Under the pieces are notes generated by a model, which saw only the letters and a list, made by a program, of their open reading frames with translations, searched no databases and was not told the DNA's origin. This document shows positions 6,973 to 38,916 of a DNA stretch of 39,201 bases, one piece after another; the first letter of the stretch is position 1; each line of letters opens with the position of its first letter. The DNA lies in UHGV virus genome UHGV-0121072. One strand, 5' to 3'. The stretch is from a virus. A program made the position numbers and the translations under genes.

Positions 6973-7013
6973 AATCATGAAGGCCACGACTTTGAGTCAT
7001 GACCTTGAGTCTA
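6973..7013 (-). promoter_or_regulatory. Conserved stem-loop, candidate RNase III processing site (upstream of gp1.1)
   Basis: Member of a repeated family TAGACTCAAGGTCAT-N-GTGGCCTT(T/C)ATGATTA (minus sense); stem AAGGUCAU/GUGGCCUU pairs only in minus-sense RNA because of G.U wobbles. Confidence 0.5.
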
Positions 7014-7033
7014 ATCCTATAGTGATAGTTTAG
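7012..7033 (-). promoter_or_regulatory. Phage RNAP promoter (CTAAACTATCACTATAGGAT) upstream of gp1.1
   Basis: Consensus copy; position equals T7 phi1.1. Confidence 0.7.
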
Positions 7034-7108
7034 GTTAACCTCTTCTTCGTTGGATTAAAGTGAATAATGCGAGTGCTCCTAGCCACAAGTCCAGTAACTG
7101 TAGGTCTG

Positions 7109-7324
7109 TCATTTGGTCTGCTCCAGCTTGGACACTGCGTCTTTCAGGTATTTCTCGTGGCTGGATTCCACAAGATAGACGAGGGTCTTGAATGGGACGT
7201 TAAGCTGTTTTGACATCTCGGTAGGAATGACCGTGGTCTTCACCAGACCCTTGCCGTTGTGTTCTGTTACGGTCACGATTTGAGTCCCACCATTAACGCC
7301 GGTCTGCTTGTGTGCAAATTTCAT
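7109..7324 (-). CDS. Hypothetical 71-aa protein immediately downstream of the RNAP gene
   Basis: ATG at 7324 with AGGAGA SD; no motif recognised. Confidence 0.5.
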   Translation of the reverse strand: MKFAHKQTGVNGGTQIVTVTEHNGKGLVKTTVIPTEMSKQLNVPFKTLVYLVESSHEKYLKDAVSKLEQTK

Positions 7325-7336
7325 AACTCTCTCCTG

Positions 7337-10018
7337 TTAAGCGAATGCATAGTCTGAAGACAAGACGTCTTCGATATTCAGTTTACCTTTCTTCGGAAGC
7401 TCTGGCAGCTTGTCGCGCTGGCTCTCATGAAGCTGGTATTCAAACTGCTCATAGAAGTCAAGCAGCACATCGTTGTCGCGGTAGGTCTCGACCATCGTCT
7501 CACGGACGCCACGGAACAGATACTCAGCGTCAGCCGGGATGGTACCGAAGCTATCGTGAATCACTGCGAATGACATCACGCCATACTTGCGGTGAGTGTG
7601 GACTACAGTCTTGCGTAGGTGGCTACCATCTTGTGAGTGGACGAAGTTCGGGCTAATGCCTGACTCCTGCTTGTGCTTGTCCAGCTCTTTCTTCATACCT
7701 TTATTGACTGTAGGCTGAAGGTTGAATGACCCTAAGAACATCAGGTTCAGACGAGTGGTATCCTTCTTGCGGTATTCCTGCCAGACCGGGAACCCATCAG
7801 GTGTGACCCAGTGTACCGGAAGGCAAGGCTTCAGTATTTCTCCAGTCTTCTTGTCCTTCACTTCAGCAGCCAGCAGCTTGGCAGCACCTTGAAGCCACTT
7901 CATCACGTCAACCGCAGCAACTACGGTCCCGCTCACAGCTTCCCAAATCATCTTAGCCATGAAGCGAGACGCTTGGCTTGGCTCGGTGAACATAGCTCCA
8001 GACCCTGAGTCAATCGCTGGCATCACGATGTCATCGTATACTTGGTCTGCGAATCCGTACTCTTTCGACCCGTAGGCCAGAGTCATGACTGAACGCTTAG
8101 GGACCTTACGTGACATACCGTAGGTCAGCCACTGACGGGCCAGCTCTCGTGTCCCCAGCTTGAGACGCTCGGTAATCTCACCAGTTTTCTTGTCCTCGTG
8201 AGTCACAACCTCGTTATCTGTACCGTTAACCAGCAGGACTTTAAGCTCCTCCTCAATGCGATCAGACACGATGCGGTAGATGTCTTGGACCTTACCGGAT
8301 GGCGTCAGGTTCACTGCATGTCCACCAATGTGGTCACGAAGCATCGCGCTGAAGTGCTGAATCCCAGAGCAGGACCCATCGAACGCTATCGGCAGCGAGC
8401 AGGAGTAAGACAAGCCGTGGTGCATTACGCCAGCATACTCGAAGCAGAACGCAAGGAAGCAGAACGGAGAGTCTAACTTGCCCCACCACTCAATGCTATC
8501 CATCGGTGCCTTAGCAGCAGCCATGATGTTGTCGTGGTTATCTTCCACCCACTTGATGCGCTCCTCGAAGGTGACTTTATCGACACCCGCACAGTTTGCA
8601 CCGTGGACCTTCAGCCATTTGAAACCATCAGCACCAATAGGCTTACCGACTGCCAGAGTAAGGAGACCCTTCTGCATGTCGTTACCCTGAGGGTTGAACA
8701 TCGGTACAGCGTAGACTCGACCGCGCCAGTCCATGTTGTATGGGAACCAGATGGCCTTGAACTGAGAGAACTTGTTCGCTTGGTTAACGATAAAGCTCAG
8801 TGACAATCTGCGTGACTGCCGGGCCTTCTCTCGGCGGTAGATACCGGCAGCAGCTTTCTTCCATGCCTTGAGTTCCTCTTCAGTCTCACCCACATAGTCT
8901 TCAGGCTTCAGTGGCTCCATCTGAGGGATGTCGTCAATAGGCGTGTTGTTCAACTTCTCGACCATGTTCACCACGTCCAGAACCTTCTTGTTCACTTTCC
9001 AAGGTGTATTCTGGATGATGTTGACAGCGTCATAGACTTCAGGCATGTACACGTCTTCGTAACGTGCCACCGCAGACTTAGACCCTAAGCGAATCAATGG
9101 TAACGGTCTGCGACCTTTGGCCCAGTACCCGCCGCCTACGACACCCGTCCACGGCTTAGGTGGAACGACGCAAGGCTGATAGACTGGTGCGATACCCGCA
9201 AGGCTGAATCCACGTTGTGCCATCTTCTTGACCCAGAAGTCTGACAGGTGGACCATCTCAACATCAGCCGCTGCATTGCCAGCACCATAACGCTTAAGCT
9301 CGACCAGTTGTGTGGACTGGATGACAATCTCAAGCATCTTGATGCCAACATGGACCGCCTCGGTCGGACTCCAAGTTCCCCACGCATCTTCCAGTTGACC
9401 CTGCTCCAGCATGGAGGCCTCAACCGCTTGCATGTAGGCTTTCTTGTAGGATGCCCCAGCTCGCTTGTTCAGGTTCTCAGCTATCGCCTTCTTGAAGTGC
9501 TCCTTCTCCTTGTCACGGATGCGACCGAAGCGGATTTCGTCCTCAAGTGTGCGACCTATCGCTGAGGCCATCGGTGTAATCGGTATCCCTTCAGGCTTGA
9601 CCAGCTTGGAGAGGATGACCTTCAGTATAATAACTGCAGCAGACTCGCAAGAGATACGCAGAGAGCGGTCCTTGACGGCCTTCTCTTCAGTGCTCAACAT
9701 GGTGAACGCTACGCTAGGACGAGAGGTTGACAGCTTCCCGTCTGGACCTTCATGCCACTCCCGAACGGCTTGCGCAATCTTAGGGACCAGAGTCTGCATC
9801 AAAGGCTTGGCGACCTGATTGTCTGCCAGTTCCCCGCGCTCTGTCTGGCGCTCAAGGTTCTTGATGAAACGTCGCTCGCCTTCAGTGTATGCCTCATGCT
9901 CAAGCTGAAGCTGCTTGACTGCAAGGTCTTGCCCGTAGTGGTCAGCCAGCAGGTTAAACGGCTCAATGGCGTTCGACACATCAGAGAAGTCGTGTTTGTC
10001 AATAGAGATGACGCTCAT
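7337..10018 (-). CDS. gp1: Single-subunit DNA-dependent RNA polymerase
   Basis: 893 aa; aligns along its length with T7 RNAP (FPYNMDWRGRVYA, DGSCSGIQHFSAMLRD, RSVMTLAYGSKE, HDSFGT, C-terminal ...FAFA). Confidence 0.97.
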   Translation of the reverse strand: MSVISIDKHDFSDVSNAIEPFNLLADHYGQDLAVKQLQLEHEAYTEGERRFIKNLERQTERGELADNQVAKPLMQTLVPKIAQAVREWHEGPDGKLSTSRPSVAFTMLSTEEKAVKDRSLRISCESAAVIILKVILSKLVKPEGIPITPMASAIGRTLEDEIRFGRIRDKEKEHFKKAIAENLNKRAGASYKKAYMQAVEASMLEQGQLEDAWGTWSPTEAVHVGIKMLEIVIQSTQLVELKRYGAGNAAADVEMVHLSDFWVKKMAQRGFSLAGIAPVYQPCVVPPKPWTGVVGGGYWAKGRRPLPLIRLGSKSAVARYEDVYMPEVYDAVNIIQNTPWKVNKKVLDVVNMVEKLNNTPIDDIPQMEPLKPEDYVGETEEELKAWKKAAAGIYRREKARQSRRLSLSFIVNQANKFSQFKAIWFPYNMDWRGRVYAVPMFNPQGNDMQKGLLTLAVGKPIGADGFKWLKVHGANCAGVDKVTFEERIKWVEDNHDNIMAAAKAPMDSIEWWGKLDSPFCFLAFCFEYAGVMHHGLSYSCSLPIAFDGSCSGIQHFSAMLRDHIGGHAVNLTPSGKVQDIYRIVSDRIEEELKVLLVNGTDNEVVTHEDKKTGEITERLKLGTRELARQWLTYGMSRKVPKRSVMTLAYGSKEYGFADQVYDDIVMPAIDSGSGAMFTEPSQASRFMAKMIWEAVSGTVVAAVDVMKWLQGAAKLLAAEVKDKKTGEILKPCLPVHWVTPDGFPVWQEYRKKDTTRLNLMFLGSFNLQPTVNKGMKKELDKHKQESGISPNFVHSQDGSHLRKTVVHTHRKYGVMSFAVIHDSFGTIPADAEYLFRGVRETMVETYRDNDVLLDFYEQFEYQLHESQRDKLPELPKKGKLNIEDVLSSDYAFA

Positions 10019-10087
10019 ACTTAAAGTCCTTGTTATTAGTCTTTCACTTAAAGTCTCTTTGGTCTTTCACTTGGAGTCTTAGACCTT

Positions 10088-10109
10088 GAGTCCTATAGTG
10101 ATAGTTAAG
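10088..10109 (-). promoter_or_regulatory. Phage RNAP promoter (CTTAACTATCACTATAGGAC) about 75 nt upstream of the RNAP gene
   Basis: Consensus copy with TTAAC variant also seen in two other copies; followed by two direct repeats gtctttcactt(a/g)(a/g)agtc in the leader. Confidence 0.6.
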
Positions 10110-10115
10110 TCAGAA

Positions 10116-10442
10116 TCACTTGCATATCAGTTGGTTAGCGTGAAGATGACTGAAGTCACCATGAGTCGTGTGCTTGATGGTTGACCGTTGGTCTATCGCC
10201 GTCCAGCCTGAGACCAGAAGTTTACCATCGTCAGTGATTGGTCGTCCACCATACGCCAGACACATCAGTTCGGACTTATGTCCCTCGGCCCTGAGCCTTG
10301 CTTGCAGTACCCGGTCGCGCTCCTGCTGTTGACGTTCTGAGTGACTTGAGGTCCCGTGACGGTAGCCCGTAGCCAGTGCTGAAAGCAGATTAAGGTCTGC
10401 GTCAAGTGCATGGACCAAGTTGATGCCATAAGATTTACTCAT
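10116..10442 (-). CDS. Hypothetical 108-aa early protein (occupies the slot of T7 protein kinase gp0.7)
   Basis: ORF directly upstream of the gene 1 promoter; start overlaps the stop of the preceding ORF; no kinase motifs. Confidence 0.5.
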   Translation of the reverse strand: MSKSYGINLVHALDADLNLLSALATGYRHGTSSHSERQQQERDRVLQARLRAEGHKSELMCLAYGGRPITDDGKLLVSGWTAIDQRSTIKHTTHGDFSHLHANQLICK

Positions 10443-10639
10443 TACAGTTTGCTCCCAAGAGTTGCTATATCCCAGACGTTCGCTAAGTTGCGCATGAATC
10501 GTCCGTTAGGTTGGCGCACAGTCCAGCGACCCAGACGTACATAGTTGAATTTGTAGACTTTACGCGCTTTGTTGATGTCTCTCACCAGCACGTAGACTAT
10601 AAGTCCATAGCCTATGGCTATCAATAGTGCGATACTCAT
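10442..10639 (-). CDS. Small membrane protein, 65 aa (N-terminal TM helix, basic C-terminus)
   Basis: ATG at 10639 overlaps the stop of the upstream 29-aa ORF (ATGA); hydrophobic segment IALLIAIGYGLIVYVLV. Confidence 0.45.
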   Translation of the reverse strand: MSIALLIAIGYGLIVYVLVRDINKARKVYKFNYVRLGRWTVRQPNGRFMRNLANVWDIATLGSKL

Positions 10640-10725
10640 AGTGATTTCCGTTTAATACAATCGTATATACCATAACCCATCATCCAGATAACTGGCGCTA
10701 GGCATACCCAGTAACCGATGTTCAT
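10636..10725 (-). CDS. Candidate 29-aa hydrophobic peptide
   Basis: ATG at 10725 with AGGAG SD 6 nt upstream; MNIGYWVCLAPVIWMMGYGIYDCIKRKSL; coupled to the next ORF. Confidence 0.25.
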   Translation of the reverse strand: MNIGYWVCLAPVIWMMGYGIYDCIKRKSL

Positions 10726-10751
10726 AGTTAACTCCTATCAATGTAAGTGAT

Positions 10752-10792
10752 AATCTTTGAGGCCACCTATCAGTCAGATGACCTCTCGTCTA
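10752..10792 (-). promoter_or_regulatory. Conserved stem-loop, candidate RNase III site (variant)
   Basis: aatctttgaggccac...atgacct... variant of the stem-loop family. Confidence 0.4.
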
Positions 10793-10798
10793 TCACTC

Positions 10799-11146
10799 CT
10801 ACACTTCCACCTCGATGGTTGTCATCTTGGTCACAGTAAGACCACCAGCAAGCTCAACCGCATAGCGTATCGCCTCCTCTTTGGACTTGAAGTCCTTTCC
10901 CGCAAGGTGGTATATGTCCCCTGTTATTACCTTAGATGGCCTGCGACTTACCGCAATAGCGTTTTCCATGGTAAGCTCACCACGGCTATACTGAGTAAAC
11001 CAGCGCTTCACCGAACTCGTCCCCACCCCGAACTTTTTGGCGGTTTCCGTCACCCTATCTATAACTCCCTCAGGCAGGGAGGTGTAGTAGTTAACAACGT
11101 TGAGTTTAAATGCTACCGAGAATACATTGCGAGTTTTAGCAGTCAT
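10799..11146 (-). CDS. Early protein with IS3/IS911 OrfA-type helix-turn-helix (HTH_Tnp_1-like), 115 aa
   Basis: N-terminus VFSVAFKLNVVNYYTSLPEGVIDRVTETAKKFGVGTSSVKRWFTQYSRG follows the IS3-family OrfA HTH pattern; no transposase catalytic domain follows. Confidence 0.55.
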   Translation of the reverse strand: MTAKTRNVFSVAFKLNVVNYYTSLPEGVIDRVTETAKKFGVGTSSVKRWFTQYSRGELTMENAIAVSRRPSKVITGDIYHLAGKDFKSKEEAIRYAVELAGGLTVTKMTTIEVEV

Positions 11147-11176
11147 TATTCTTTCCTTCTGTGGTTGTCAAGTGGT

Positions 11177-11210
11177 AATCACTCAGGCCACCATGTAGAT
11201 GACCTGTAGT
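11177..11210 (-). promoter_or_regulatory. Conserved stem-loop, candidate RNase III site (variant)
   Basis: aatcactcaggccacc atgtag atgacct variant of the family. Confidence 0.4.
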
Positions 11211-11217
11211 TTAACAC

Positions 11218-11343
11218 TCAGTACCCACCTGTCAGCGTTATGGTCAGACTTTGGTGATTAGCTACGTAGCAAGCACCACGCTTCATCATCTCGTAGCACC
11301 CATTGTAGAACGCCTGTTCACTGCTATAAGTTATCTGGTACAT
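11218..11343 (-). CDS. Candidate 41-aa early protein
   Basis: ATG at 11343 with GAGGA SD, TGA at 11220..11218; MYQITYSSEQAFYNGCYEMMKRGACYVANHQSLTITLTGGY. Confidence 0.3.
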   Translation of the reverse strand: MYQITYSSEQAFYNGCYEMMKRGACYVANHQSLTITLTGGY

Positions 11344-11500
11344 AGTTGCTTGTCCTCAGCGCGTAAGCTGTCGTATAGACGCTTGCGGCCCTCGTAGACC
11401 TCTTTCAGGTGACGCATAGTCGCATCGTGGTTTAACTGCCCGGTCTTGACCATAAGCCTGGCGTTGGTGACGTGGTGCTGGCAGAGACCATAAGTTAACA

Positions 11501-11845
11501 TCACTCGCAGTCCTCCTCGTCGCTCTCTTCAGCCTCAAACCAGACCACATCCGAGCTATCGAGCACGTCATTATATAGCGCCTCATAGATGCGAGCTTGC
11601 AATATACGCGTTACGTCCTTGGTCTCAGGCATCAGCCCAGAGTCTTCGAACTCGTGGTCTATACCATCAGCAGCCATCACCGTGAAGATCTCGTGGTAAT
11701 AGTGCGGAACCTGACTGTCTACGACTTCATGCAGCGCATCATGGTAGTCATCGCCTTCAGCTATTTCGTCGTACTGAATACGCTCGTTAAAGGCCTCAAC
11801 GGTTGCAGTCAGCAGCTCATAGTATGCGTTAGCGTTACGTTCCAT
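11501..11845 (-). CDS. ocr: Ocr (overcome classical restriction) DNA-mimic anti-restriction protein
   Basis: 114 aa; VPHYYHEIFTVMAADGIDHEFEDSGLMPETKDVTRILQARIYE nearly identical to T7 gp0.3; acidic C-terminus. Confidence 0.9.
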   Translation of the reverse strand: MERNANAYYELLTATVEAFNERIQYDEIAEGDDYHDALHEVVDSQVPHYYHEIFTVMAADGIDHEFEDSGLMPETKDVTRILQARIYEALYNDVLDSSDVVWFEAEESDEEDCE

Positions 11846-11876
11846 AGTTATATCCTCTCAGTTGTTAGTGACCATC

Positions 11877-11913
11877 AGTCAGGGCCTTCAGATGTAGACT
11901 CAAAGACCCTGTA
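11877..11913 (-). promoter_or_regulatory. Stem-loop upstream of ocr, candidate RNase III site
   Basis: Minus-sense CAGGGUCUU...AAGGCCCUG 9-bp stem; T7 has an RNase III site before gene 0.3. Confidence 0.4.
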
Positions 11914-12027
11914 GTTAGTCGCTATCGGCGCACATTAAGAGTTTATCCAGATTGTTAAAGAGCATTCCCTTCAGTCAGATGACTTCAGGTAGACCATTTC
12001 AGTGTTGGTCGTCACCGTTGTTTCGAT

Positions 12028-12205: not shown

Positions 12206-12950
12206 TAGGAAATCTTAAATAATATTGATTAAGCTATCGTCGGCCCCATGGCGTAAGAGGATAGTCTTTGACTAACATGTATTAGACCTTAAGTCTATAG
12301 CTTTGTGTCTATTAGACTGTAGGTCTTTGACTGTAGGTAATGGCTTTACCGATGGTCGGTGACTGTAGGTTGTAGGACTGTAGGTTGTTGAGACCTATGG
12401 TTATACAGATAGGGACTCAGAGACAGACCAATAGTCCCTACCTATCGTCCTGACCTCCAGCCATAGCCTCTACCTATCGTTGACCAATAGTCCCACCTAT
12501 CGTTGACCAATAGTCCCACCTATCGTTGACCAATAGTCCCACCATCTGTCCAACCCTTATGATAGACTGGAGGTAGGGGCCACCCTTTGTCTGGACTGAA
12601 AGAGGGCCTATGGGGAGACTTGAGGTTCTTGAACTGTGAGATGTGGTCTCAAACTTTTGGTATAAAACTCATCGAAGACTGTAGGTGGCAGCTACTGTAG
12701 GTCAAGGACCGTAGGTCAGGCGACACTAGGATAGACCAATAAGTAGGATGACCCTAAGTGAGATTCTATTAAGGTGTTACCTAAAGTCCTTGACTACAGT
12801 ATCTAAGGTCAGTAGAGTAGCGTCAGCTATGAACTGACCTTAGGTCTTCAATGCGCGTATTCCCACTCCGTCTGATAATCTTCATCAGAGAACGACCCAT
12901 AAGACTCCTCGTCCATCCCTACCTCCTTTCGTTGATTGTTACCATGATTG
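12206..12950. repeat. Non-coding genome-terminus region with dispersed decamer repeats (plus-strand gactgtaggt and variants, at least 7 copies)
   Basis: No credible ORF; repeated decamers at 12315, 12329, 12361, 12377, 12677, 12693, 12707; position (between gene 19.5-like ORF and early promoters) equals the T7 terminal repeat/concatemer junction. Confidence 0.6.
12425..12551. repeat. Tandem repeat array, 23-bp unit acctatcgttgaccaatagtccc: 3 perfect copies (12472..12540) plus degenerate flanking copies
   Basis: Seen directly; contiguous identical units without spacers. Confidence 0.85.
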
Positions 12951-12952
12951 CG

Positions 12953-13111
12953 TTAATTACACTGAGACACCAGAGAACATACGAGAGTCTCGACCCACCC
13001 GACCCACTGACTTCCAGCAGTAACGCCAGCAGCAAGTAGAACAGCAGTAAGAAACCTATATGTAGCTCGATTGGTCGCCAGAGCTTTAAGTACAGCTTTG
13101 GTCTTTGCCAT
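12953..13111 (-). CDS. Candidate 52-aa membrane protein (gene 19.5 position)
   Basis: ATG at 13111 with AGGAGG SD; hydrophobic FLTAVLLAAGVTAGSQWVGWV; downstream of the terminal promoter as in T7. Confidence 0.3.
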   Translation of the reverse strand: MAKTKAVLKALATNRATYRFLTAVLLAAGVTAGSQWVGWVETLVCSLVSQCN

Positions 13112-13408: not shown

Positions 13409-15172
13409 CTAGTGGAACGTAACGTAGGACCCTAGTCCCAGCTCGTCGTCCGTATCGTGAGTTACCCGGACCCCATTGTCCCAGAACTCAGTGTGGATGG
13501 ACTCGAAGCCTTTCCGTGGGTTCTCCATCTGTTCCTCCAGCCACTCCTCAGTGACTTCACGTTCGCCTTTGTTGGCATCCTTAGCCATCGACTCAACGAA
13601 GAACTGTACACCGATAGCCAGCGCATCAAGTCGGTCATCGTGTGCCAAGGCTCCACGTTCACGAGAGATACGGGTCATCTGGTAGAAGAGAGAGTAGATA
13701 GGGTTACGAACACCATCCTTGTCAGAGGCTGTCTGGTAGTCTTGGACGATAGCAGCAGCGTTAACGATAAGTCGGTGAGACCCCATGATAGGCTCCAGAA
13801 CGTCACAGATGCGGAGTTCTTTCTGACCCTTACTCTTCACTTCAGTTACAGCAGCAGGATGGATACGGGCCGCTACAGGCTTGAATAGCTCAAGGTACAT
13901 ACCATCACCGAAGTTACCCTCAATGACGTATTCGTTGACCTTCCACTTATGACCAATCTTAGCCAGAGCTTCCAGAGTAGAGTCTTCGTATCCACCACGC
14001 ATACCACCAACCTCCATAGCGAAGATGTAGCCGTTGAGCTGGTACAATACCGCATAACCAGTTTCATCCTTACCACGACCACTAGGGTCAATGACCAGAA
14101 TCTTCTGGGTGTATGAGCTGAACGCAGAACCTACAGTCTGATACGTGTGGTACGAGTCACCAATGAGTCCAACGTTAGGAACGTCCTCACGCTTGTTCTG
14201 ATGGTTCGGCAACCATTGGTAGACCATTGGGCTAGACGCTGGGTCTAAGTCCGCTACGATAAGGTCACGGAGCTTCAGAGGGTATTTCTCGGCATCACTC
14301 AGGTTCGGGTTAAGCATGAACTGTAGAGCGAAGCCAGCTTTACCGTAGGACAGCTCACGTTCCTTCAGGTCAGTATCGTCGAATCGAACTTCATCGGTCG
14401 GACGCCAGTAGAAGGCCTCAGGGTCCTCTTCAAGCTCTGCCTGAAGCATAGGAGCCAGACGGTCTCCGTAAGACTGCCAGTCCTTCCTGTCGCGTGGATA
14501 ACGAGCAGGCCAGATAGTAGTGGTGTATCCACGGCCTTCTAGCTCACGATACAAGGTCATCTCGTTCTGAGGAGTACCCAGATAGATGATTGTACCTCCC
14601 GGCTTCAGGATAGCGTCGAACTCTTTCACAAGCTCTGACAGGCGGTCTCTTGCAGCCTGAGTCGCTGAGTTGTTCGGAACCTCAACGTCATCGGCAATCA
14701 GGATGTCAGCACGACTACCAGTCAACTGACCAGTGATACCAACTGACTTAACAGAAGGTGAGTGGTCAGGCTTGGCTGGCCCAACGTCGAAGCTAATAAC
14801 CGCATCTCGCTGTCCCTGCTTAGGTTTGAGTTCCTGAAGCTGAGGCATGAGGTCGATGATTCGCTTGATGAATATGGAGTTAGCATCAGCTCGTTCCTTT
14901 GAGGCAGACACAATCATGAACTTCAAGTCTGGGTTGTTCCATAGTTTCCAGACCACGAATGCACACGTAATGAAGGACTTCCCGATACCACGGAACGCCT
15001 GTAAGATGAAACGCCTGTTGTCCCCAGCCGATAGTTTCTTCGCCATGTCAATCTGACAGCGAGTCGGGACTGGGAGTGACAGAGCTTTCCATAGAACAAA
15101 CAGGAAGAACACGAAGTCTGCCTTCATACGGGCAGTCATTAGCGCCTGACGCGCCACTAAGTCTTTACTCAA
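13409..15172 (-). CDS. gp19: Terminase large subunit (TTG start)
   Basis: 587 aa; [73 protein letters not shown] match T7 gp19. Start codon at 15172..15170 is TTG with AAGGAGG SD 7 nt upstream. Confidence 0.93.
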
Positions 15173-15330
15173 GGTCTCACCTCCTTAGTTACCTTAAACC
15201 CAATCATCGTCGGGTTCTTACCGGAAGTCAGGGCCTCAGTAGCAACCCTGTAGGCAGACTCAATGCTTGTATAACGCCACCCAAGCATCTCAGAGCCGTC
15301 CAAGAACAGGTAGGTAGTCTTCCACATCAT
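15169..15330 (-). CDS. Candidate 53-aa protein between spanin and terminase genes
   Basis: ATGATG at 15330 overlaps the i-spanin stop with AAGGAGA SD; its TGA overlaps the terminase TTG start (TTGA). T7 has only a short gap here. Confidence 0.35.
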
Positions 15331-15773
15331 CTGGTCTCCTTATCTTGCTGTAAGGCTCTCACAGTGTCCTGAAGGGCCTTAATCCATTTGTCTCCTTTCA
15401 CTCCGATGGCGATAAGACGTTTAGCGTCTCGTTCGTCAAGTTCGGCGTAACCATCAATGACGCATCGACCGTCACTTTGCGTGGTTCCACTCGTTGGTTT
15501 GACTCGGATGCGCAACCGCTTATTGTCAGACTGAAGGTCAGCAATAATCCTATCAGTGCTGCCTTCCAGCGAGGACATTTCGTCCTGAAACCGTTTGGAC
15601 ACCTTGTTGACTTCAGCTTGGACAGCAAGTCTTGTATCCTCCGATGCCTTAAGATTCGAGGTGTATTCTGCATTGACCTTAGCCTCCCACTTATTGTTAG
15701 CGGTGTGGTAGCCGCCAGCAAACATCACTGCTGCAAGTAGCCACGGAGCCGCTCTCTTTAAAAATTCGAGCAT
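15327..15773 (-). CDS. gp18.5: i-spanin (Rz-like)
   Basis: 148 aa with N-terminal TM segment AAPWLLAAVMFAGGY and coiled-coil periplasmic part; GGGAGG SD. Confidence 0.8.
   Translation of the reverse strand: MLEFLKRAAPWLLAAVMFAGGYHTANNKWEAKVNAEYTSNLKASEDTRLAVQAEVNKVSKRFQDEMSSLEGSTDRIIADLQSDNKRLRIRVKPTSGTTQSDGRCVIDGYAELDERDAKRLIAIGVKGDKWIKALQDTVRALQQDKETR
15398..15673 (-). CDS. gp18.7: o-spanin (Rz1-like lipoprotein), embedded in the i-spanin gene in another frame
   Basis: ATG at 15673 with GGGAGG SD; lipobox LTISGC after hydrophobic ALIGLLLTFS; Pro-rich mature part. Confidence 0.7.
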   Translation of the reverse strand: MQNTPRILRHRRIQDLLSKLKSTRCPNGFRTKCPRWKAALIGLLLTFSLTISGCASESNQRVEPRKVTVDASLMVTPNLTNETLNVLSPSE

Positions 15774-15825
15774 AGTTGCCCTCCCAGTTTTCCAGATTTC
15801 ACGTAGCGTTACCTACGATAGTGTT

Positions 15826-15867
15826 AATCATAAAGGCCACCTACTACATGTAGATGACCTTGAGTCT
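15826..15867 (-). promoter_or_regulatory. Conserved stem-loop, candidate RNase III site (between gp18 and gp18.5)
   Basis: aatcataaaggccac ctactacatgtag atgaccttgagtcta; T7 has an RNase III site at this junction. Confidence 0.5.
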
Positions 15868-15882
15868 AACACTTAAGAGATA

Positions 15883-16146
15883 TTACTGTACTCCATATCC
15901 AGTGTCATTATCTTCCGTAGCGGAGAGCACCTTATCGTACTCTGCGTTCAGGGCCTCCATATCAGCCAGCGTCTTCTCGTCCACAGACACCTTGCTTAAC
16001 ACAAAGTTGTGACGAGCTAGCAGCTTCTCAATGGCGTTGTAGAGCTGAGGTGAACGCTTAGAGTCATCCCGCAGGTCTTGCAGCATGAGTCGAGCACGTT
16101 CAGTATCCAGCATCAAGAGGAACTTCTCTAAGTCCATCTGCGTCAT
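15883..16146 (-). CDS. gp18: Terminase small subunit
   Basis: 87 aa; synteny (after holin, before spanins) and RSPQLYNAIEKLLARH resembling T7 gp18. Confidence 0.7.
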   Translation of the reverse strand: MTQMDLEKFLLMLDTERARLMLQDLRDDSKRSPQLYNAIEKLLARHNFVLSKVSVDEKTLADMEALNAEYDKVLSATEDNDTGYGVQ

Positions 16147-26097: not shown

Positions 26098-26147
26098 AAG
26101 GGCCTATAGTCCCTATAGTGATAGTTAAGGTAAATCTATAGGCCCTT
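26098..26147. repeat. Perfect 12-bp inverted repeat (AAGGGCCTATAG ... CTATAGGCCCTT) enclosing the phi13-like promoter
   Basis: Arms at 26098..26109 and 26136..26147 are exact reverse complements; the loop contains the promoter core. Confidence 0.8.
26108..26129 (-). promoter_or_regulatory. Phage RNAP promoter (CTTAACTATCACTATAGGGA) upstream of the gp13-position gene
   Basis: Consensus copy; position equals T7 phi13. Confidence 0.7.
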
Positions 26148-29437: not shown

Positions 29438-29478
29438 AAAAAAAAACCCTCAAGCACCCGAAGGCACCCAAGGGTTTT
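29438..29478 (-). terminator. Tphi-like transcription terminator after gene 10
   Basis: Minus-sense RNA ACCCUUGGGUGCC-UUCG-GGUGCUUGAGGGU (13-bp stem with G.U pairs, UUCG loop) followed by a run of 9 U; same position and style as T7 Tphi. Confidence 0.75.
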
Positions 29479-29488
29479 CATATAGTTA

Positions 29489-31686: not shown

Positions 31687-31757
31687 TGAGTCATTCTCCT
31701 TTGATTGAAATGGTAGGAACAACGGGACTAGAAACCTACAAATTGTAGACCAGACGT

Positions 31758-31779
31758 TGTTCCTATAGTGATAGTTTAG
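31758..31779 (-). promoter_or_regulatory. Phage RNAP promoter (CTAAACTATCACTATAGGAA) upstream of the scaffold gene
   Basis: Consensus copy; position equals T7 phi9. Confidence 0.75.
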
Positions 31780-33605: not shown

Positions 33606-34002
33606 GATTAATCTCCTTAGTTGTTACGATGTCTACCGACCCTGAAACATGCTTGACACGAGAATACCAGTCAAGACCCCAACGCTTGCACTCTTCGTTT
33701 ATGATGTGCCTGACAGTCTCAAGAACCTTGCGGGAGGACTGCGAGTCACGACGAATAGCGACGATTGAAAGGTCAAGACCGGGAGTCGGTCGGTGCCAAG
33801 ATGCGGTAGCCAGCATGTAGAGATACGCTACTGGTTGACCTGAGACATCGTAGATTGTGTACTCTTCACCGTCGAACTCGTCAGCCATACGGTAAGTATG
33901 AGCCTTGAAGTCCTCGAATGTCTTGAAGTTAGACTGCCCGTCTTCCCAGAGGCGACAAGCGCACATGTGGCGACCTTCGCGTGAGTTGAGATATGGTAGC
34001 AT
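33598..34002 (-). CDS. gp7: gp7-like virion protein
   Basis: 134 aa; C-terminal half resembles T7 gp7; start choice uncertain (weak SD at both candidate ATGs). Confidence 0.65.
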   Translation of the reverse strand: MLPYLNSREGRHMCACRLWEDGQSNFKTFEDFKAHTYRMADEFDGEEYTIYDVSGQPVAYLYMLATASWHRPTPGLDLSIVAIRRDSQSSRKVLETVRHIINEECKRWGLDWYSRVKHVSGSVDIVTTKEINLG

Positions 34003-34006
34003 TGTC

Positions 34007-34231
34007 TTACCCCATGTTTACGCCAGAGGCTCGCATAGCGCGGCTCACTGACGATTTATCTTTAGGTGCAGACTCCTTCTTGACCTTCAGGTCTTTGATA
34101 CCTTTGGTCTCGTTGATGTCCACATCCGATTCAGCCCCGATGTCAACTGACGCAACTTCCTCACTCAGAGGTGCTGGTTCAGGTGCTTGGACCGAAGGCT
34201 TCGGAGTGCTAATCTTCGGACTGAAACACAT
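34007..34231 (-). CDS. gp6.7: gp6.7-like virion protein
   Basis: 74 aa; N-terminal MCFSPKI and PEPAPL as in T7 gp6.7; AGGAGG SD. Confidence 0.75.
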   Translation of the reverse strand: MCFSPKISTPKPSVQAPEPAPLSEEVASVDIGAESDVDINETKGIKDLKVKKESAPKDKSSVSRAMRASGVNMG

Positions 34232-34245
34232 AGTCCCTCCTATAG

Positions 34246-34518
34246 TTAATCGAACTGAACGGTATCTTTCAGCTCACGACGCATAGCAATCGCAGAGTCT
34301 AGAGTGTCAGAGCAATACTGGAGACCCTTGATAAACCCGGCAATGAACGCATCGCTGTAGCCCTGCTGCTTGAGGAGACTAATAGCTCCCATCTTCTCAG
34401 CGTAGCTTGCGTTGAACAATACGTGCAGGAACTGGATGGCAGACTGGGAGATGTTCGGGACATCAAGTCTTTCTTCCTGTAACTGCTTAACAACGTTTTC
34501 AATAGCATTAATCGCCAT
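34246..34518 (-). CDS. Hypothetical protein (gp6.5 position), 90 aa
   Basis: ORF downstream of the phi6.5-like promoter with AGGAG SD; synteny only. Confidence 0.5.
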   Translation of the reverse strand: MAINAIENVVKQLQEERLDVPNISQSAIQFLHVLFNASYAEKMGAISLLKQQGYSDAFIAGFIKGLQYCSDTLDSAIAMRRELKDTVQFD

Positions 34519-34579
34519 CTTGAAGCTCCTCTTTAAGTTAAGACTAAAGTCTATCTTATAGTCATATCTTAGGTCCTAA

Positions 34580-34601
34580 AGTCCCTATAGTGATAGTTTA
34601 G
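34580..34601 (-). promoter_or_regulatory. Phage RNAP promoter (CTAAACTATCACTATAGGGA) upstream of the gp6.5-position gene
   Basis: Consensus copy; position equals T7 phi6.5. Confidence 0.75.
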
Positions 34602-34654
34602 TGTTTCACCTATGGATGACTGTTGGATTGATAGGATATGACTATCGGTTAGAC

Positions 34655-34747
34655 TCAGTGTTTAGGGCGGTTGTTCGACCCGAACCACTTATACATGCAG
34701 TAAAGGGCCAGAAGTCCGACCCAGTAGATTACATGGATGGTGTCCAC
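34655..34747 (-). CDS. Candidate 30-aa hydrophobic peptide with GTG start (gp6.3 position)
   Basis: GTG at 34747 preceded by AAGGAGG at 7-nt spacing; overlaps the 3' end of gene 6 in another frame. Confidence 0.2.
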   Translation of the reverse strand: MDTIHVIYWVGLLALYCMYKWFGSNNRPKH

Positions 34748-35598
34748 AGGATGACCTCCTTGGACTTAGGGTCATAGTCGGAGGCTCGACAAATACGAGC
34801 GACCTGAGCTTGGACCAGAAGTTCCTCCTCGGTCATCCCAGCTTTAGCAGCCAGAGTCACCATGCAGTCCCACAACGTCATGTCCTCTCGCTTAGGATAC
34901 TTCTTCCACTCAGTCTTAATCTGGCCTTTGTTCTTACCAGTCTTAAGCTCACGGCTCTCCTGCACGAAGTAGTATGGCTCGTCAAGGAACTCACGAGTTG
35001 TGTCCTCACCCATACCCGGAATCCCACCGTAGCCATCTGTAGTATCACCCTTGATGGTCTGCTCCATGTGCCAGTAGTCTGCCTCGGCAGTCGTATGACT
35101 CAGGATTTCACCAGTTGTCAACCAGAAGAACTCACAGTTCGGGATGGTCTTGAAGTCCTTATCACAGGACACCAGCACCGCATGGTCGCACCCAACAATC
35201 TGAGGTCGAGTACCAATGATACCCATGCAGTCATCGCCCTCAAGCGTAGGACGCAGGAAGCTGTTGAACCGTGGGTCAGCCATCACTTCGGCTACGAACT
35301 TCTTGTAACCTACAGGCTTGCGAGAACCTTTACGGTTGGCCTTATAGGTAGGTAGGACGTCCTTACGCCAGTTGTAATCGTCGGTGAAGCACATCACAAT
35401 CTTAGCGTCTTTCCACGCCTTGCGCTTCTTAACGATTTCAGCTATGGTGTTCTCAAGGATACGACGAGCCTTCTCGTGGTCGCAGATAAGTGTCCAGATG
35501 TCATCACCCCAGTCTGTCTCGTCCTCGGCAGCAGCCATAGAGGAGAAGACCAGATAGTCACCATCCAGCACCAGAGCTATCTTCTTCTCAGAACCCAT
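34729..35598 (-). CDS. gp6: 5'-3' exonuclease (FEN-like)
   Basis: 289 aa; CDHEKARRILE, NYKANRK, PVGY, LEGDDCMGIIG, SCDKDFKTIPNCEFFW, WHMEQTIKGDTTDGYGGIPG, TLWDC...AKAGMTEEEL match T7 gp6. Confidence 0.93.
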   Translation of the reverse strand: MGSEKKIALVLDGDYLVFSSMAAAEDETDWGDDIWTLICDHEKARRILENTIAEIVKKRKAWKDAKIVMCFTDDYNWRKDVLPTYKANRKGSRKPVGYKKFVAEVMADPRFNSFLRPTLEGDDCMGIIGTRPQIVGCDHAVLVSCDKDFKTIPNCEFFWLTTGEILSHTTAEADYWHMEQTIKGDTTDGYGGIPGMGEDTTREFLDEPYYFVQESRELKTGKNKGQIKTEWKKYPKREDMTLWDCMVTLAAKAGMTEEELLVQAQVARICRASDYDPKSKEVILWTPSM

Positions 35599-36037
35599 CG
35601 TCTAGACCTCCCGTAGCCATAGCGACCGTAGCTGGCATCAAGGTAACTTTCGGCTCCTCAATACGTTCCAGAGTTACCCCAGGCTTCAGCCATTTGTTGG
35701 CGAACTCATGGGCCATGTCATTATCCTCTGAGTTGAGGTGTGACATCAAGCTCCAGAAGTTGGAAGATATTTCGGTCTCCTTCTCAACCTGGCGATATAC
35801 GCCCCAGTCATTTACCTCTGAACCGCAGCTGTCACTCCACATACCACTGGCTACGATGGTCAGCCCGATGAACGGACGCCACTCATAGGCATCAGAGGGA
35901 GACTCTGCGTATGCCTCAACGTCCTTCTCGGTCAAGGTGTATGACCAAGATGCGTAGAACTCATCGTACTTTCTGTGCTCCGTCTCGCACTCACCCATGT
36001 CAAGGACCAGCTCTTTCAGACTTTCAGGTATCTTCAT
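35588..36037 (-). CDS. Strongly acidic 149-aa protein in the gp5.9 (RecBCD inhibitor) position; function unknown
   Basis: ATG at 36037 overlaps gp5.7 stop (ATGA) with GGAGG SD; about 29 Asp/Glu versus about 12 Lys/Arg/His; ends ...GGLDDGF; no resemblance to the 52-aa T7 gp5.9. Confidence 0.55.
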   Translation of the reverse strand: MKIPESLKELVLDMGECETEHRKYDEFYASWSYTLTEKDVEAYAESPSDAYEWRPFIGLTIVASGMWSDSCGSEVNDWGVYRQVEKETEISSNFWSLMSHLNSEDNDMAHEFANKWLKPGVTLERIEEPKVTLMPATVAMATGGLDDGF

Positions 36038-36243
36038 AGACAGCCTCCATGTTGATTCAGGAACTTGGTGCCCGCAGCGGTAATCTCCCATGCACCGTTG
36101 TTACGCCCATCCGTAGACAGGCAGCTCAGATGTCCACGACTCGCAGCCTCAGCCACAAGTGCAGCGTTGTTGCGCACATAGTTGGACTGAAATGTCTTCG
36201 GGCAGGACTTAAGGGCCGCTAGGACCCGTAAGTATTCACTCAT
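36034..36243 (-). CDS. gp5.7: gp5.7 homolog (host stationary-phase sigma factor inhibitor in T7)
   Basis: 69 aa; KSCPKTFQSNYVRNNAALVAEAASRGHLSCL and GGAWEITAAGTKFL nearly identical to T7 gp5.7. Confidence 0.85.
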   Translation of the reverse strand: MSEYLRVLAALKSCPKTFQSNYVRNNAALVAEAASRGHLSCLSTDGRNNGAWEITAAGTKFLNQHGGCL

Positions 36244-36524
36244 TGCTTGACCTCGAATCGCAGGTTGGATACTCTGAACTGGCCATCACCAAAGGCGTCT
36301 ACCAGCTCCTCCTTGATGATCTTCTTGGCGACAATCTCAATGGCAGACTCAGGACCTGACTCGATTGCTGTTTTGACAAGAGCCACCTGAAGTCCATCCA
36401 GCTTCTCACCCTCAGCGTAGGCTTTAGTCATCTCAGCCAGTTGGCGACACACGGTCTCTTCTTCTTTTGAGTTGACAACCATCTTCAGGTCTAAACTCAC
36501 ACGAATACGTTTAGTAATAGCCAT
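36240..36524 (-). CDS. gp5.5: gp5.5-like protein (H-NS-binding protein in T7)
   Basis: 94 aa; N-terminal MAITKRIRVSLDL pattern like T7 gp5.5, plus synteny. Confidence 0.6.
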   Translation of the reverse strand: MAITKRIRVSLDLKMVVNSKEEETVCRQLAEMTKAYAEGEKLDGLQVALVKTAIESGPESAIEIVAKKIIKEELVDAFGDGQFRVSNLRFEVKQ

Positions 36525-36685
36525 TAGCCTTCTCCTTCTTCTTCGTTATGCTCTTTCAGAATTTCATGAATGTCTCGACTGCATGAACCACTGAGGTTTG
36601 GATTATAACCAGACTCCTCGTGTCCACACCACCAAGCTGACCGCATCAGGTCTTTGACCTCCTGCTCGCTATAAGTTTTAGCCAT
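36524..36685 (-). CDS. Candidate 53-aa protein directly after the DNA polymerase gene
   Basis: ATG overlaps the DNAP stop (TAATG) and its TAA overlaps the next ATG; MAKTYSEQEVKDLMRSAWWCGHEESGYNPNLSGSCSRDIHEILKEHNEEEGEG; below the track cutoff. Confidence 0.4.
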   Translation of the reverse strand: MAKTYSEQEVKDLMRSAWWCGHEESGYNPNLSGSCSRDIHEILKEHNEEEGEG

Positions 36686-38856
36686 TAGTGACACTCCTTC
36701 CACGTTGGTCCAATCTTACCTTCGGTATCAAGGACACATTTAAAGTTATAGAACTCACCCACCTTACGCATAGCAAGTTGAGCAATCTTGACGACTTCTT
36801 CGGCAATCTCCTGAGTACGACACGCAATCTGCAATTCGTCATGCACCCAAGCCATGTACGCAAAGTCGCCTTCCCAGCCGTGAACATACCCTGCCTCTTC
36901 GAGCATACGTTCAGTCTCCACAATCCAGTGCTTACAGACTACCGCACCATCACCTTGAAGTAATGCGTTCAGTGCTGAGTGTGGCGACCGGATGTGGATA
37001 CGGCGACCATCAAGTCCACGCAACCAACGGCGTTTCCACTTGACGATGTTCTCTCCGTCCACCCACTTAGAGTCTGAGATTAACGTACTACTAACAGCTT
37101 CCCTGAGGTCTTTGATGGCTGGTGTACCCTCAATGAATTTCTTCATGAGAGCTGAACCTTCCTTCTTACCGCCTCCGACTATCAGTCCAATCTTAGCGGC
37201 CCCTGCACCATACAGGAACGCATAGATGAACGTCTTGGCGTTGTTACGGAAAGCCTCATGATCGTGGTTCGATTTATCGCGTGGGACGTTAGGTGCTAAC
37301 CCAGCGTTTACTGCGTTGGCCCAGTGGATGTCACCTTCTACCACAGTCTTCGCATAGTCACCACCATCAAACGGAGCCGCTCGGTTCCCCAGACAACGAA
37401 GCTCAAGACCTGAGGCATCCACGCCTACTTGAATCCAAGGGTCTGGCTTACCGTCCTTCTTGTTCCACGCTGCACCGAAAGCACCACGGCAAGTCTCACC
37501 ATATGGGGCACCATTAGCCGGGACCTGAGCCATGTTTGGTGAACTATGGGTCGCACGTCCGGTTACTGCCCCGCATGGGTTGATTGAACCGTGCATACGT
37601 CCGTCTGGACCTACAAGTTTCAACCATGCGTTCTTACCTTCAGCCGCCTGACCGATGCGCTTCTGGACTACCAGATACTCACGGACCAGCTCTACGCAAG
37701 CCTGAGCCTCTGCGTCTGGCAACTTAACGTGTTCTAACGTCTCGTCATCGACTACAGGTTTACCAGTGTCAGTGAAGTCAACAGGCTCCCAGCCACGCTC
37801 CATCAGGACTTTCGCTAAGTGGTCTCCGCTTCCCGGATTAAACTCAACGTAAGTGATTGGCGTGAATGGTGCTCCTTCCATCGTGTCTCGCGTATCGAGT
37901 TCACAAGGTTCAAGACCTAAGCGTTGAGCTTTGTTCTTCGGCTTCTTAAAGATGCCACCGACCTTGGGATACACGACTCTCGGATACTTCGGGAGGTCCT
38001 TACCTGTCCGTGGATGCCTGAAGAACTCCTTGCCTCCCTTCGGTGCATACCAGCTACCGAAAGTCGAACGCAGCTTGTCCAGCAACTCCGCACGTTTGAC
38101 GGTGAGTTCACGATATAAGCCTTCGACCATCTCGGTGTTCATCGGATAGCCGTTACGCTCCATCTTCGCACAGGTCCACGCAGCATCATGTTCCAGACGC
38201 AACGCATAAATCTGTTCGAAAGCGAACTGTCCAGACTGGAAGTAATACTTGTCAGTCAGGAACTTCTTGAACAATGCCAGTGTGACCACAACGTCTTGAA
38301 CGTTATAGTCCAGCATCTCCTGAGACGGGAACAACCATTCGTCCCCAGACTTATATTCGATACCTTCGGCCTTGCACTTGGCAACGTAATCGTGTTTGTA
38401 TTCACCCTTCATCTCACCTAGACGATAGCCCCAAGCCTCAAGAGACTGGCGTCCCATCATCTTAGGTGGAAGACGACCAGATTTCACCGCGCCCATGTCT
38501 GAGAACTTAATGTTTGGATACATCAAGCGGCCCAGCACCAAGGTATCAATCATCTTGTGTTTCGGGAAGTTAAAACGTTTCCCAAAGTACAGACGTTTCA
38601 GCTTGTCAATAGCCGGGACGTCATAGTTGATACCGTTGTGAAATACCAGCATACCATCAGGCGATGCGGCAATCTCTTCCACTTTATGAACATACTCTTT
38701 GAAGCCACCGACGATACCGACCATCGGCGCTACCCCATACTTAAGGGTCTCATTCGACTCGGCATTAATCAGGACCCCACAATGGAACTGGGACACGGTG
38801 TCAAGGAGACCGTTTGTCTCGATGTCCGAACCCCAAATATCCTTAAGGTCAAACAT
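36685..38856 (-). CDS. gp5: DNA polymerase (family A, with 3'-5' exonuclease domain)
   Basis: 723 aa from ATG at 38856 (GGGGGA SD); DIETNGLL, FHNGINYDVPAI, QDVVVT, SGSGDHLAK-region, RAAPFDGGDYA, YMAWVHDE match T7 gp5. The track's longer ORF starts at an upstream GTG. Confidence 0.96.
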   Translation of the reverse strand: MFDLKDIWGSDIETNGLLDTVSQFHCGVLINAESNETLKYGVAPMVGIVGGFKEYVHKVEEIAASPDGMLVFHNGINYDVPAIDKLKRLYFGKRFNFPKHKMIDTLVLGRLMYPNIKFSDMGAVKSGRLPPKMMGRQSLEAWGYRLGEMKGEYKHDYVAKCKAEGIEYKSGDEWLFPSQEMLDYNVQDVVVTLALFKKFLTDKYYFQSGQFAFEQIYALRLEHDAAWTCAKMERNGYPMNTEMVEGLYRELTVKRAELLDKLRSTFGSWYAPKGGKEFFRHPRTGKDLPKYPRVVYPKVGGIFKKPKNKAQRLGLEPCELDTRDTMEGAPFTPITYVEFNPGSGDHLAKVLMERGWEPVDFTDTGKPVVDDETLEHVKLPDAEAQACVELVREYLVVQKRIGQAAEGKNAWLKLVGPDGRMHGSINPCGAVTGRATHSSPNMAQVPANGAPYGETCRGAFGAAWNKKDGKPDPWIQVGVDASGLELRCLGNRAAPFDGGDYAKTVVEGDIHWANAVNAGLAPNVPRDKSNHDHEAFRNNAKTFIYAFLYGAGAAKIGLIVGGGKKEGSALMKKFIEGTPAIKDLREAVSSTLISDSKWVDGENIVKWKRRWLRGLDGRRIHIRSPHSALNALLQGDGAVVCKHWIVETERMLEEAGYVHGWEGDFAYMAWVHDELQIACRTQEIAEEVVKIAQLAMRKVGEFYNFKCVLDTEGKIGPTWKECH

Positions 38857-38877
38857 GGTTAATCCCCCGTTTAATCT

Positions 38878-38916
38878 AATCATAAAGGCCACTCGCTGTG
38901 AATGACCTTGAGTCTA
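38878..38916 (-). promoter_or_regulatory. Conserved stem-loop, candidate RNase III site (upstream of gene 5)
   Basis: aatcataaaggccac tcgctgtga atgaccttgagtcta, third near-identical copy of the family. Confidence 0.5.

Follow-up and report, generated by a model that had tools for sequence, protein, structure and literature searches.

A family of six intergenic stem-loops in a K1F-like phage genome resembles the RNase III processing sites of T7

The window, the whole stretch of 39,201 nt that was analysed, derives from a K1F/EcoDS1-like relative of T7 (Kayfunavirus) whose genes lie on the minus strand. Six stem-loop elements (sites A to F) lie on this coding strand, each of them intergenic or touching only a stop codon, with the next start codon 15–45 nt away. 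In the early region, site A (11866..11924) is found 20 nt upstream of the start codon (11845) of the ocr-like ORF (ocr, gene 0.3) and is the positional equivalent of T7 R0.3. Site B (11170..11219) overlaps the stop codon of a 41-aa ORF and is located 23 nt upstream of a 115-aa ORF (start 11146), and site C (10745..10798) begins 1 nt past the stop codon of the latter; the next small ORF (start 10725) follows site C after 19 nt. The 5′ arm of site D (6966..7019) begins at the +1 (approximately G7017) of a phage RNA polymerase promoter downstream of gene 1 (7016..7038, minus strand, consensus ...CTAAACTATCACTATAGG), which abuts the element. A 59-aa ORF (6941..6762) follows 24 nt further downstream, a layout like that of T7 phi1.1A/R1.1, and the EcoDS1 orthologue of the promoter is annotated as a phi promoter (6034..6056). 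Site E (38872..38922) opens, with its first three bases, on the stop codon that ends a 42-aa ORF (39048..38920); the site lies 15 nt upstream of the ATG (38856) of the DNA polymerase gene (gene 5), as the positional equivalent of T7 R4.7. Finally, site F (15819..15874) is placed between the genes for the terminase small subunit (gene 18, 16146..15883) and an Rz-like spanin (gene 18.5, 15773..15327), equivalent to T7 R18.5.

A preliminary description of this DNA had proposed three near-identical copies and three looser variants of one stem-loop. The 15 + 15 nt pattern TAGACTCAAGGTCAT-N(9-13)-GTGGCCTTYATGATT matched exactly three times, always on the minus strand, at 6973..7013 (site D), 15826..15868 (site F) and 38878..38916 (site E), where none was expected, and a match occurred in 0 of 100 dinucleotide shuffles. 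For the looser variants, we used a covariance model trained on T7 R0.3, R0.5, R1, R1.1, R1.3, R4.7 and R18.5 only. When it was run over the whole window with the filters off, six matches were obtained with E-values from 7e-10 to 3e-4; the next match (34546..34509, E-value 3.9) was dismissed as noise. Each of the looser variants fell inside a model match, at 10745..10798 (site C, 38.3 bits, E-value 1.5e-6), 11170..11219 (site B, the best match, 52.2 bits, E-value 7.4e-10) and 11866..11924 (site A, 28.7 bits, E-value 3.1e-4). Site A, with a bulged upper stem, scored much below the other sites, and the exact copies scored 51.5 bits (site F, E-value 1.1e-9), 47.6 bits (site E, 9.1e-9) and 46.3 bits (site D, 1.9e-8). 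In a control, T7 R6.5, which was held out of training, was recovered with an E-value of 2.6e-7. The search for further copies by pattern and covariance model thus returned the same six elements only. These results confirm that the repeated intergenic stem-loops are real and lie where they had been placed, although their proposed extents were too short: each element reaches approximately 5–7 nt further on both sides, into a lower stem.

Minimum free energy predictions and the model alignment gave an irregular two-stem hairpin with an internal loop at all six sites. The hairpin spans about two helical turns. The site-specific sequences beyond the first-proposed ends pair into a lower stem of 8–9 bp; above it come an asymmetric internal loop, with ACUC on its 5′ side and UAUGA on its 3′ side or a variant of these, and 10–14 bp of upper stem. 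Site A folds at -21.8 kcal/mol with both stems and the internal loop. The base of the upper stem reads (C)AAGGUCAU/GUGGCCUU; at sites D, E and F it is CAAGGUCAU/GUGGCCUU, exactly as in T7 R1.1, and sites A, B and C depart from this through compensatory pairs. The proposal that the stem forms only in minus-sense RNA was borne out by folding energies of -17 to -24 kcal/mol for minus-sense RNA versus -7 to -17 kcal/mol for plus-sense RNA. The complementary strand folds 3–10 kcal/mol worse than the transcribed strand, and the structure is strand-specific because G.U pairs become C.A mismatches on the complementary strand.

Conservation of the flanks had also been taken as a sign of sequence-specific recognition. 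This inference holds only in part: the conserved flanks are the 4/5-nt internal loop, which holds the predicted scissile bond, and the top of the lower helix, and therefore they are structural parts of the hairpin and not an extra recognition tag. Recognition of T7 R1.1 has been assigned to base pairs of the proximal and distal boxes in the upper stem (PMC1540722), and Chelladurai et al. (1991; cited in PMC6121014) describe in their title a conserved sequence element as dispensable for accurate in vitro cleavage. At the six sites, the proximal and distal box region of the upper stem appears compatible with RNase III binding.

Covariation was examined in 106 distinct sites of T7-like phages aligned to the model. 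Standard pairs were present in 93.7% of cells (one cell being one site and one pair), compared to at most 49% when partners were slid. Compensatory changes on both sides were found in 17 of 19 pairs, and none of 500 shuffles reached the observed values. Since the alignment was fitted to the model and most loci were retrieved with a pattern that fixes the core, covariation is freely tested only in the lower stem and the apical part. The most conserved parts are the internal loop and the base of the upper stem: GG/CC is invariant, and of the 28 sites outside the selection by the retrieval pattern, 27 have the loop U. Within the window, A-U, C-G and G-C all occur as the second closing pair; the closing pair of site B is C-G versus A-U at other sites, a compensatory change, and the second closing pair of site C is G-C instead of A-U.

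The strand bias and the pairing data bear on whether the elements are primarily signals at the DNA level, such as recombination patches, replication-origin hairpins, or triggers or decoys of host defence. The palindrome of a T7 RNase III site is a DNA trigger of the Lamassu DdmABC system (PMC11707656), and homology breakpoints between related phages occur at hairpin edges, with two 'hybrid hairpin' junctions visible. However, G.U pairs make the structure strand-specific and all copies are on the transcribed strand, G-C to G-U changes among T7-like sites preserve the pairs at the RNA level, and any role in recombination would follow secondarily from the sequence being repeated. We consider a primarily DNA-level function very unlikely. 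The elements are not promoters either: they show no similarity to the 23-bp consensus (..TAAACTATCACTATAGG..), of which a scan allowing up to 2 mismatches found 12 minus-strand copies, and only site D abuts a promoter, which the scan placed at 7029..7016.

The same architecture is present in T7. Dunn and Studier are said to have described, in 1983, a consensus class of T7 sites comprising R0.3, R0.5, R1, R1.1, R4.7, R6.5 and R18.5. The window elements share with this class the core ACUCAAGGUC..GGCCUUUAUGAUU, the succession of lower stem, 4/5-nt asymmetric internal loop and upper stem, and the intergenic placement on the coding strand. T7 5855..5895, between phi1.1A and phi1.1B, reads AAACTCAAGGTCATTCGCAAGAGTGGCCTTTATGATTG and has the core of the window copies; the longer T7 segment 5848..5898 has the same core as site D. 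T7 R0.5, which reads GATAGACTCAAGGTCGC..GTGGCCTTTATGATTATC, matches the copies in its core as well, so that the upper-stem base and internal loop of sites D, E and F are common to R1.1 and R0.5, and the core of site B resembles T7 R1 (ACAGGUCAUCU...GGUGGCCUGA). Four of the six sites are syntenic with T7 sites, namely R0.3 (before ocr), R1.1 (following the phage promoter that lies downstream of gene 1), R4.7 (before gene 5) and R18.5 (in the gap separating genes 18 and 18.5), in agreement with the coincidence of positions noted previously before 0.3, before 1.1 and between 18 and 18.5. At the 1.1 site, the promoter +1 is the first base of the hairpin in both phages.

The two systems also differ. 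The window has six consensus sites versus eight in T7, and two of its early sites bracket a gene absent from T7. Its three late and middle copies are more uniform in the core than the T7 paralogues. A site of the R6.5 type, with a promoter in its loop, was not found when looked for around the promoter at 34597..34584. An equivalent of R1.3 was not detected in the window, and before gene 1 there is only a weak hairpin (10092..10040), which we do not count as a site: the 5′ half GGACUCAAGGUCU is kept there, but the fold is weak (z -0.5) and the model E-value exceeds 10. The T7 sites were mapped experimentally, whereas those of the window are predicted from sequence.

EcoDS1 and K1F carry orthologous copies at the same positions with the site-specific lower stems kept. 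These are EcoDS1 902..960 and K1F 708..766 for site A, EcoDS1 1491..1543 and K1F 1767..1819 for site C, EcoDS1 13042..13093 and K1F 12854..12905 for site E, and EcoDS1 35937..35990 and K1F 36447..36500 for site F, which in T7 corresponds to 36817..36867. Recent gene conversion among sites D, E and F was rejected because their EcoDS1 and K1F orthologues keep both the site-specific lower stems and the apical sequences.

We conclude that the six elements are very probably T7-type RNase III processing signals, a reading put forward in the preliminary description and supported here by homology to the T7 sites in sequence and structure. In T7, the R1.1 hairpin lies between genes 1.0 and 1.1, has an asymmetric internal loop of 4 nt/5 nt and is cleaved both in vivo and in vitro (PMC6121014); R0.5 and R1.1 also function as processing sites in engineered constructs (PMC3643576). 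By homology, the elements of the window phage would be carried on polycistronic mRNAs, early as well as late, that are transcribed from the minus strand, and host RNase III would bind the upper stem and cleave only once, on the 3′ strand of the internal loop between UAU and GA. The predicted cuts are ...CCCUGACU/GAUGG at site A (before GAUGG, between 11877 and 11876), ...CCUGAGU/GAUUA at site B (between 11181 and 11180), ...CCUCAAA/GAUUA at site C (between 10756 and 10755), ...CCUUCAU/GAUUA at site D (between 6977 and 6976), and ...CCUUUAU/GAUUA at both site E (between 38882 and 38881) and site F (between 15830 and 15829), with the break before GAUUA at sites B to F. Such a cut would leave the hairpin as the protective 3′ end of the upstream message, with a presumable effect on mRNA stability, and would create a new 5′ end 25–55 nt before the next start codon. 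The T7 cleavage coordinates reportedly given by Dunn and Studier (1983) coincide in all eight sites with a single consensus position (nucleotide 50 in every T7 segment compared), and their agreement on one position supports the predicted cut position.

A database record offers a different label for some of these hairpins. In the record of the close relative vB_EcoA_ASO2B (MZ726794), the homologues of the hairpin before ocr and of the two that flank the 115-aa ORF are labelled 'rho-independent terminator; discovered using WebGeSTer', which would make them intrinsic terminators separating early transcription units. Like such terminators, the window elements are intergenic hairpins containing G+C; unlike them, their stem is broken by an internal loop, and no U-tract follows any of the six (tails ACAACUG, GACAACC, ACAUUGA, AUAAACU, AACGGGG and UCGUAGG). 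A terminator scan called none of the six sites, yet it found the true late terminator after the capsid gene (29479..29442). Furthermore, the genes immediately downstream include essential ones (gene 5, 18.5/19) that lack a separate promoter, and the T7 homologues are processing sites, not terminators. We therefore rejected the terminator reading as extremely improbable.

Alternatively, the hairpins could act mainly independently of RNase III, as mRNA stabilisers, exonuclease barriers or modulators of translation, with their likeness to T7 reflecting ancestry only. T7 can be propagated on hosts without RNase III (PMC6938266), protection from exonucleases by 3′-terminal hairpins is described in the introduction of PMC1540722, and the window has other conserved 5′-UTR hairpins without the consensus. 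The most conserved parts are, however, the internal loop and the base of the upper stem, where R1.1 has its cleavage site and its proximal and distal boxes; a simple barrier hairpin would not need such conservation, and a protective 3′ hairpin itself requires a cut just after the hairpin. We regard this explanation as unlikely, and processing by RNase III remains the preferred reading.

Outside the six-element family, a candidate seventh site of the T7 R3.8 type (1650..1681, minus strand) starts from the +1 of the promoter before gene 4. This hairpin, followed by CCCUCUGUUCGC, aligns with T7 phi3.8/R3.8, including the invariant CCCUYUGUUCGC, and folds at -20.2 kcal/mol (z -2.6). The consensus model misses it, as it also misses T7 R3.8, which is likewise non-consensus and promoter-adjacent. 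In addition, a 12-bp perfect stem enclosing the phi13 promoter (hairpin at 26147..26098) is reminiscent of the non-consensus T7 R13. Unlike the six elements, these two counterparts were undetected by the model and are assigned by position and partial alignment.

Paralogous hairpins bracket variable early-gene cassettes. The 115-aa ORF lies exactly between sites B and C, where EcoDS1 has a single hairpin composed of the upstream flank of B and the body of C. K1F gene 0.2 is likewise bracketed by hairpins, and the EcoDS1 hairpin combines K1F_708 and K1F_1031 in a hybrid whose crossover falls within the 3′ arm that the two share. Tentatively, the hairpins might also serve as short patches of homology for the gain and loss of early-gene cassettes in Kayfunavirus, an acquired gene bringing its own site. 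With less likelihood still, the near-invariant internal loop ACUC/UAUGA may be kept for a partner other than RNase III.

RNase III features were absent from the annotations of EcoDS1, two K1F records, CR44b and ASO2B, and none were listed in the T7 records examined. Rfam gave no match for the whole window at the gathering score and none for the early region at E-values up to 1. T7 itself has no Rfam match, so Rfam has no family for such sites and its silence is uninformative. The elements are close relatives of the textbook T7 RNase III sites, ordinary and already understood, and unannotated in this group of phages; current understanding of RNase III and of T7 gene expression is unchanged. Given that the genus records examined omit or mislabel the sites and that Rfam lacks a corresponding family, annotation would gain from a small covariance model. 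The value is mostly practical, for the annotation of T7-like phages and for transcript maps in phage engineering, and cassettes bounded by hairpins give a hint of how small early genes pass from one related phage to another.

The pattern TAGACTCAAGGTCAT-N(5-25)-GTGGCCTTYATGATT matched the window exactly three times, always on the minus strand and at the three near-identical stem-loops of the preliminary description (6973..7013, 15826..15867 and 38878..38916; sites D, F and E), and none of 100 shuffled sequences contained a match. Read on the minus strand, the three looser early-region variants (sites A, B and C) have AGGTCAT..GTGGCCT in common, except the copy before gene 0.3, which carries AGGGTCTT..AAGGCCCT instead. 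When folded with a few extra bases per side, each element gave two stems separated by an interior loop, the lower stem being built from site-specific sequence; thus, the units first described hold as the conserved core of elements that extend to ~50-59 nt. The folding energy was -17 to -24 kcal/mol in minus-sense RNA and -7 to -17 kcal/mol in plus-sense RNA, in agreement with the earlier proposal that G.U pairs make the stem strand-specific. Because the structure is strand-specific, a primary role at the DNA level is unlikely, although the palindromes of T7 RNase III sites can, as DNA, trigger the Lamassu DdmABC system (PMC11707656).

In T7, the core seen in the window copies recurs between phi1.1A and phi1.1B as AAACTCAAGGTCATTCGCAAGAGTGGCCTTTATGATTG, which is the R1.1 processing signal. 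We folded 76-nt windows around ten T7 RNase III cleavage coordinates, which we take to be those of Dunn and Studier (1983). In eight of the ten sites, both the consensus ACUCAAGGUC..GGCCUUUAUGAUU and the two-stem shape were present, and the cut coordinate mapped to one consensus position in every one of these eight, namely the U preceding GA. The flanks of T7 R0.5 (GUGAUAGACUCAAGGUCGC..GUGGCCUUUAUGAUUAUCAC) were nearly identical to those of the three best window copies. A covariance model was then built from seven aligned T7 sites, with lower stem, 4-5 loop and upper stem imposed and no window sequence included. With filters off, this T7-only model returned exactly six matches in the window, all on the minus strand and all at the six elements: F (15874..15819; E 1.1e-9), E (38922..38872; E 9.1e-9), D (7019..6966; E 1.9e-8) and, spanning E 7.4e-10 to 3.1e-4, the looser variants B (11219..11170; E 7.4e-10), C (10798..10745; E 1.5e-6) and A (11924..11866; E 3.1e-4). 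The search for further copies suggested in the preliminary description ended there, the next match in the window reaching only E 3.9. The model also recovered T7 R6.5, a site withheld from training whose loop contains the phi6.5 promoter, and detected orthologously placed sites in both EcoDS1 (five) and K1F (six). Since the EcoDS1, K1F and T7 orthologues retain site-specific lower stems and apices, the D, E and F cores did not arise by recent copying from one another.

Using megablast, 89 phage records matched window positions 6500..11500 at 92-94% identity over most of the query, all of them from K1F/EcoDS1/SH3-like phages of the genus Kayfunavirus (Autographiviridae, Studiervirinae). The ORF map places every gene on the minus strand in a circularly permuted order, with gene 1 RNA polymerase at 10018..7337, gene 19 terminase at 15172..13409 and gene 5 DNA polymerase at 38856..36685, and a window scan for the phage promoter consensus (..TAAACTATCACTATAGG..) found 12 minus-strand copies with at most 2 mismatches. 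Between gene 19.5 and the host promoters (non-coding, ~12400..12900, minus), three tandem GGTGGGACTATTGGTCAACGATA copies (~12545..12475) and an 11-bp perfect hairpin (12843..12803, minus) presumably mark a genome end or concatemer junction, in which case the window would be a permuted, reverse-complemented genome. All six sites are intergenic, with no more than a stop codon overlapped, and the distance from their ends to the next start codon is 15-45 nt. Site A is followed by ocr and site E by the DNA polymerase, site F is flanked by the terminase small subunit and an Rz-like spanin, and RNA polymerase, a 71-aa ORF and a phage promoter lie upstream of site D. By EcoDS1 and T7 annotation, A, F, E and D occupy the positions of T7 R0.3, R18.5, R4.7 and R1.1, which matches the coincidence noted earlier before gene 0.3, between genes 18 and 18.5 and before gene 1.1. 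The site D hairpin starts at the promoter +1 (~G7017), just as T7 R1.1 (5848..5898) starts at the phi1.1A +1 (5848).

By homology, host RNase III would cut each site once, on the 3' side of the internal loop; the predicted minus-strand cuts are 6977/6976 (D), 38882/38881 (E), 15830/15829 (F), 11181/11180 (B), 10756/10755 (C) and 11877/11876 (A, shifted by one nucleotide to agree with the covariance-model alignment). A loop or bulge limits cleavage to one phosphodiester and the leftover 3' hairpin guards against exonucleases; recognition depends on the base pairs of the proximal and distal boxes of the stem (PMC1540722), and specific pairing preferences near the cut are backed by in vivo data (PMC6212723). 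T7 has ten RNase III sites, often paired with promoters (PMC6938266; bioRxiv 10.1101/106799).

A pattern scan of IMG/VR found at least 119 stretches, nearly all on ~40-kb contigs, and in 80 of these loci, together with the window, EcoDS1 and K1F, the model located 174 sites. Among the best 150 of the 174 sites (106 distinct sequences), standard pairs filled 93.7% of cells (a cell being one base pair in one sequence) versus 27-49% with partners slid; both sides changed at 17 of 19 pairs, and none of 500 shuffles reached the observed values. The independent evidence comes from the apical pairs and from the lower stem, where all nine pairs showed compensatory change, because the core was already set by the retrieval pattern and the sequences had been aligned by fitting to the model. 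The internal loop (ACUC / UAUGA) and GG/CC pairs were almost invariant also in the 28 sites outside the pattern's selection. The second closing pair varies among the window's own sites, being A-U in D, E and F, C-G in A and B, and G-C in C. The flanks whose conservation beyond the stem was previously read as suggesting sequence-specific recognition are the scissile-bond loop and the top of the lower helix rather than an extra tag, and their conservation extends over the whole phage subfamily instead of being particular to this genome.

The deposited record MZ726794.1 (Escherichia phage vB_EcoA_ASO2B) labels the homologous hairpins (150..185, 950..982 and 1388..1423 of the locus) as rho-independent terminators, identified with WebGeSTer. 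However, a U-tract is absent at all six window sites, and a terminator scan called none of them yet detected the true late terminator at 29479..29442. Because the homologous hairpins lack a U-tract, the terminator label is probably a misannotation.

In the early region (10745..11219, minus), paralogous putative RNase III hairpins bracket variable genes: a 115-aa ORF (11146..10799) with a weak transposase-HTH match lies exactly between B and C. At this position EcoDS1 has one hairpin (1491..1543) with the upstream flank of B and the body of C, and in K1F two hairpins (708..766 and 1031..1083) bracket gene 0.2; EcoDS1 holds a hybrid of the two K1F hairpins, whose crossover lies within CTGACTGATAGTCACTAAC, the 3' arm that both share. 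Breakpoints in the megablast alignments are concentrated at hairpin edges; they also occur at other gene boundaries, so the clustering may not be specific to hairpins. Between ocr and gene 1 (10116..11845, minus), comparing ORF sizes alone, we found none sized like the T7 gene 0.7 kinase (359 aa), a protein kinase reported to stimulate RNase III.

Other hairpins accompany promoters on the minus strand. One, located at the +1 of the phage promoter that precedes gene 4 (1650..1681), aligns with T7 phi3.8/R3.8, including the invariant CCCUYUGUUCGC, and is likely an RNase III site of this different, R3.8-type class. A perfect 12-bp inverted repeat (26098..26147; z -3.3) encloses the phi13 promoter (26125..26112), so only transcripts reading through from gene 12 could form its stem, an arrangement that recalls T7 R13 and R6.5. 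A strong 5'-UTR hairpin before gene 9 begins at the +1 of the phi9 promoter (31714..31765; -22.4 kcal/mol, z -4.9, with a perfect outer stem of 11 bp) and would be a 5' stabiliser or else a further processing site. At the start of the transcript from the pre-gene 1 promoter (10040..10092) stands GGACUCAAGGUCU, which is the 5' portion of the RNase III consensus. The 3' portion is diverged and folding is weak (z -0.5); the element may be a decayed R1 site.

Taken together, homology to the T7 sites supports the RNase III interpretation proposed from the sequence, and the six elements appear to be processing sites of a known kind, unannotated in this genus. No family in Rfam release 15 matches the window or even T7's own RNase III sites, and hence these sites, though well studied, are invisible to standard RNA annotation.
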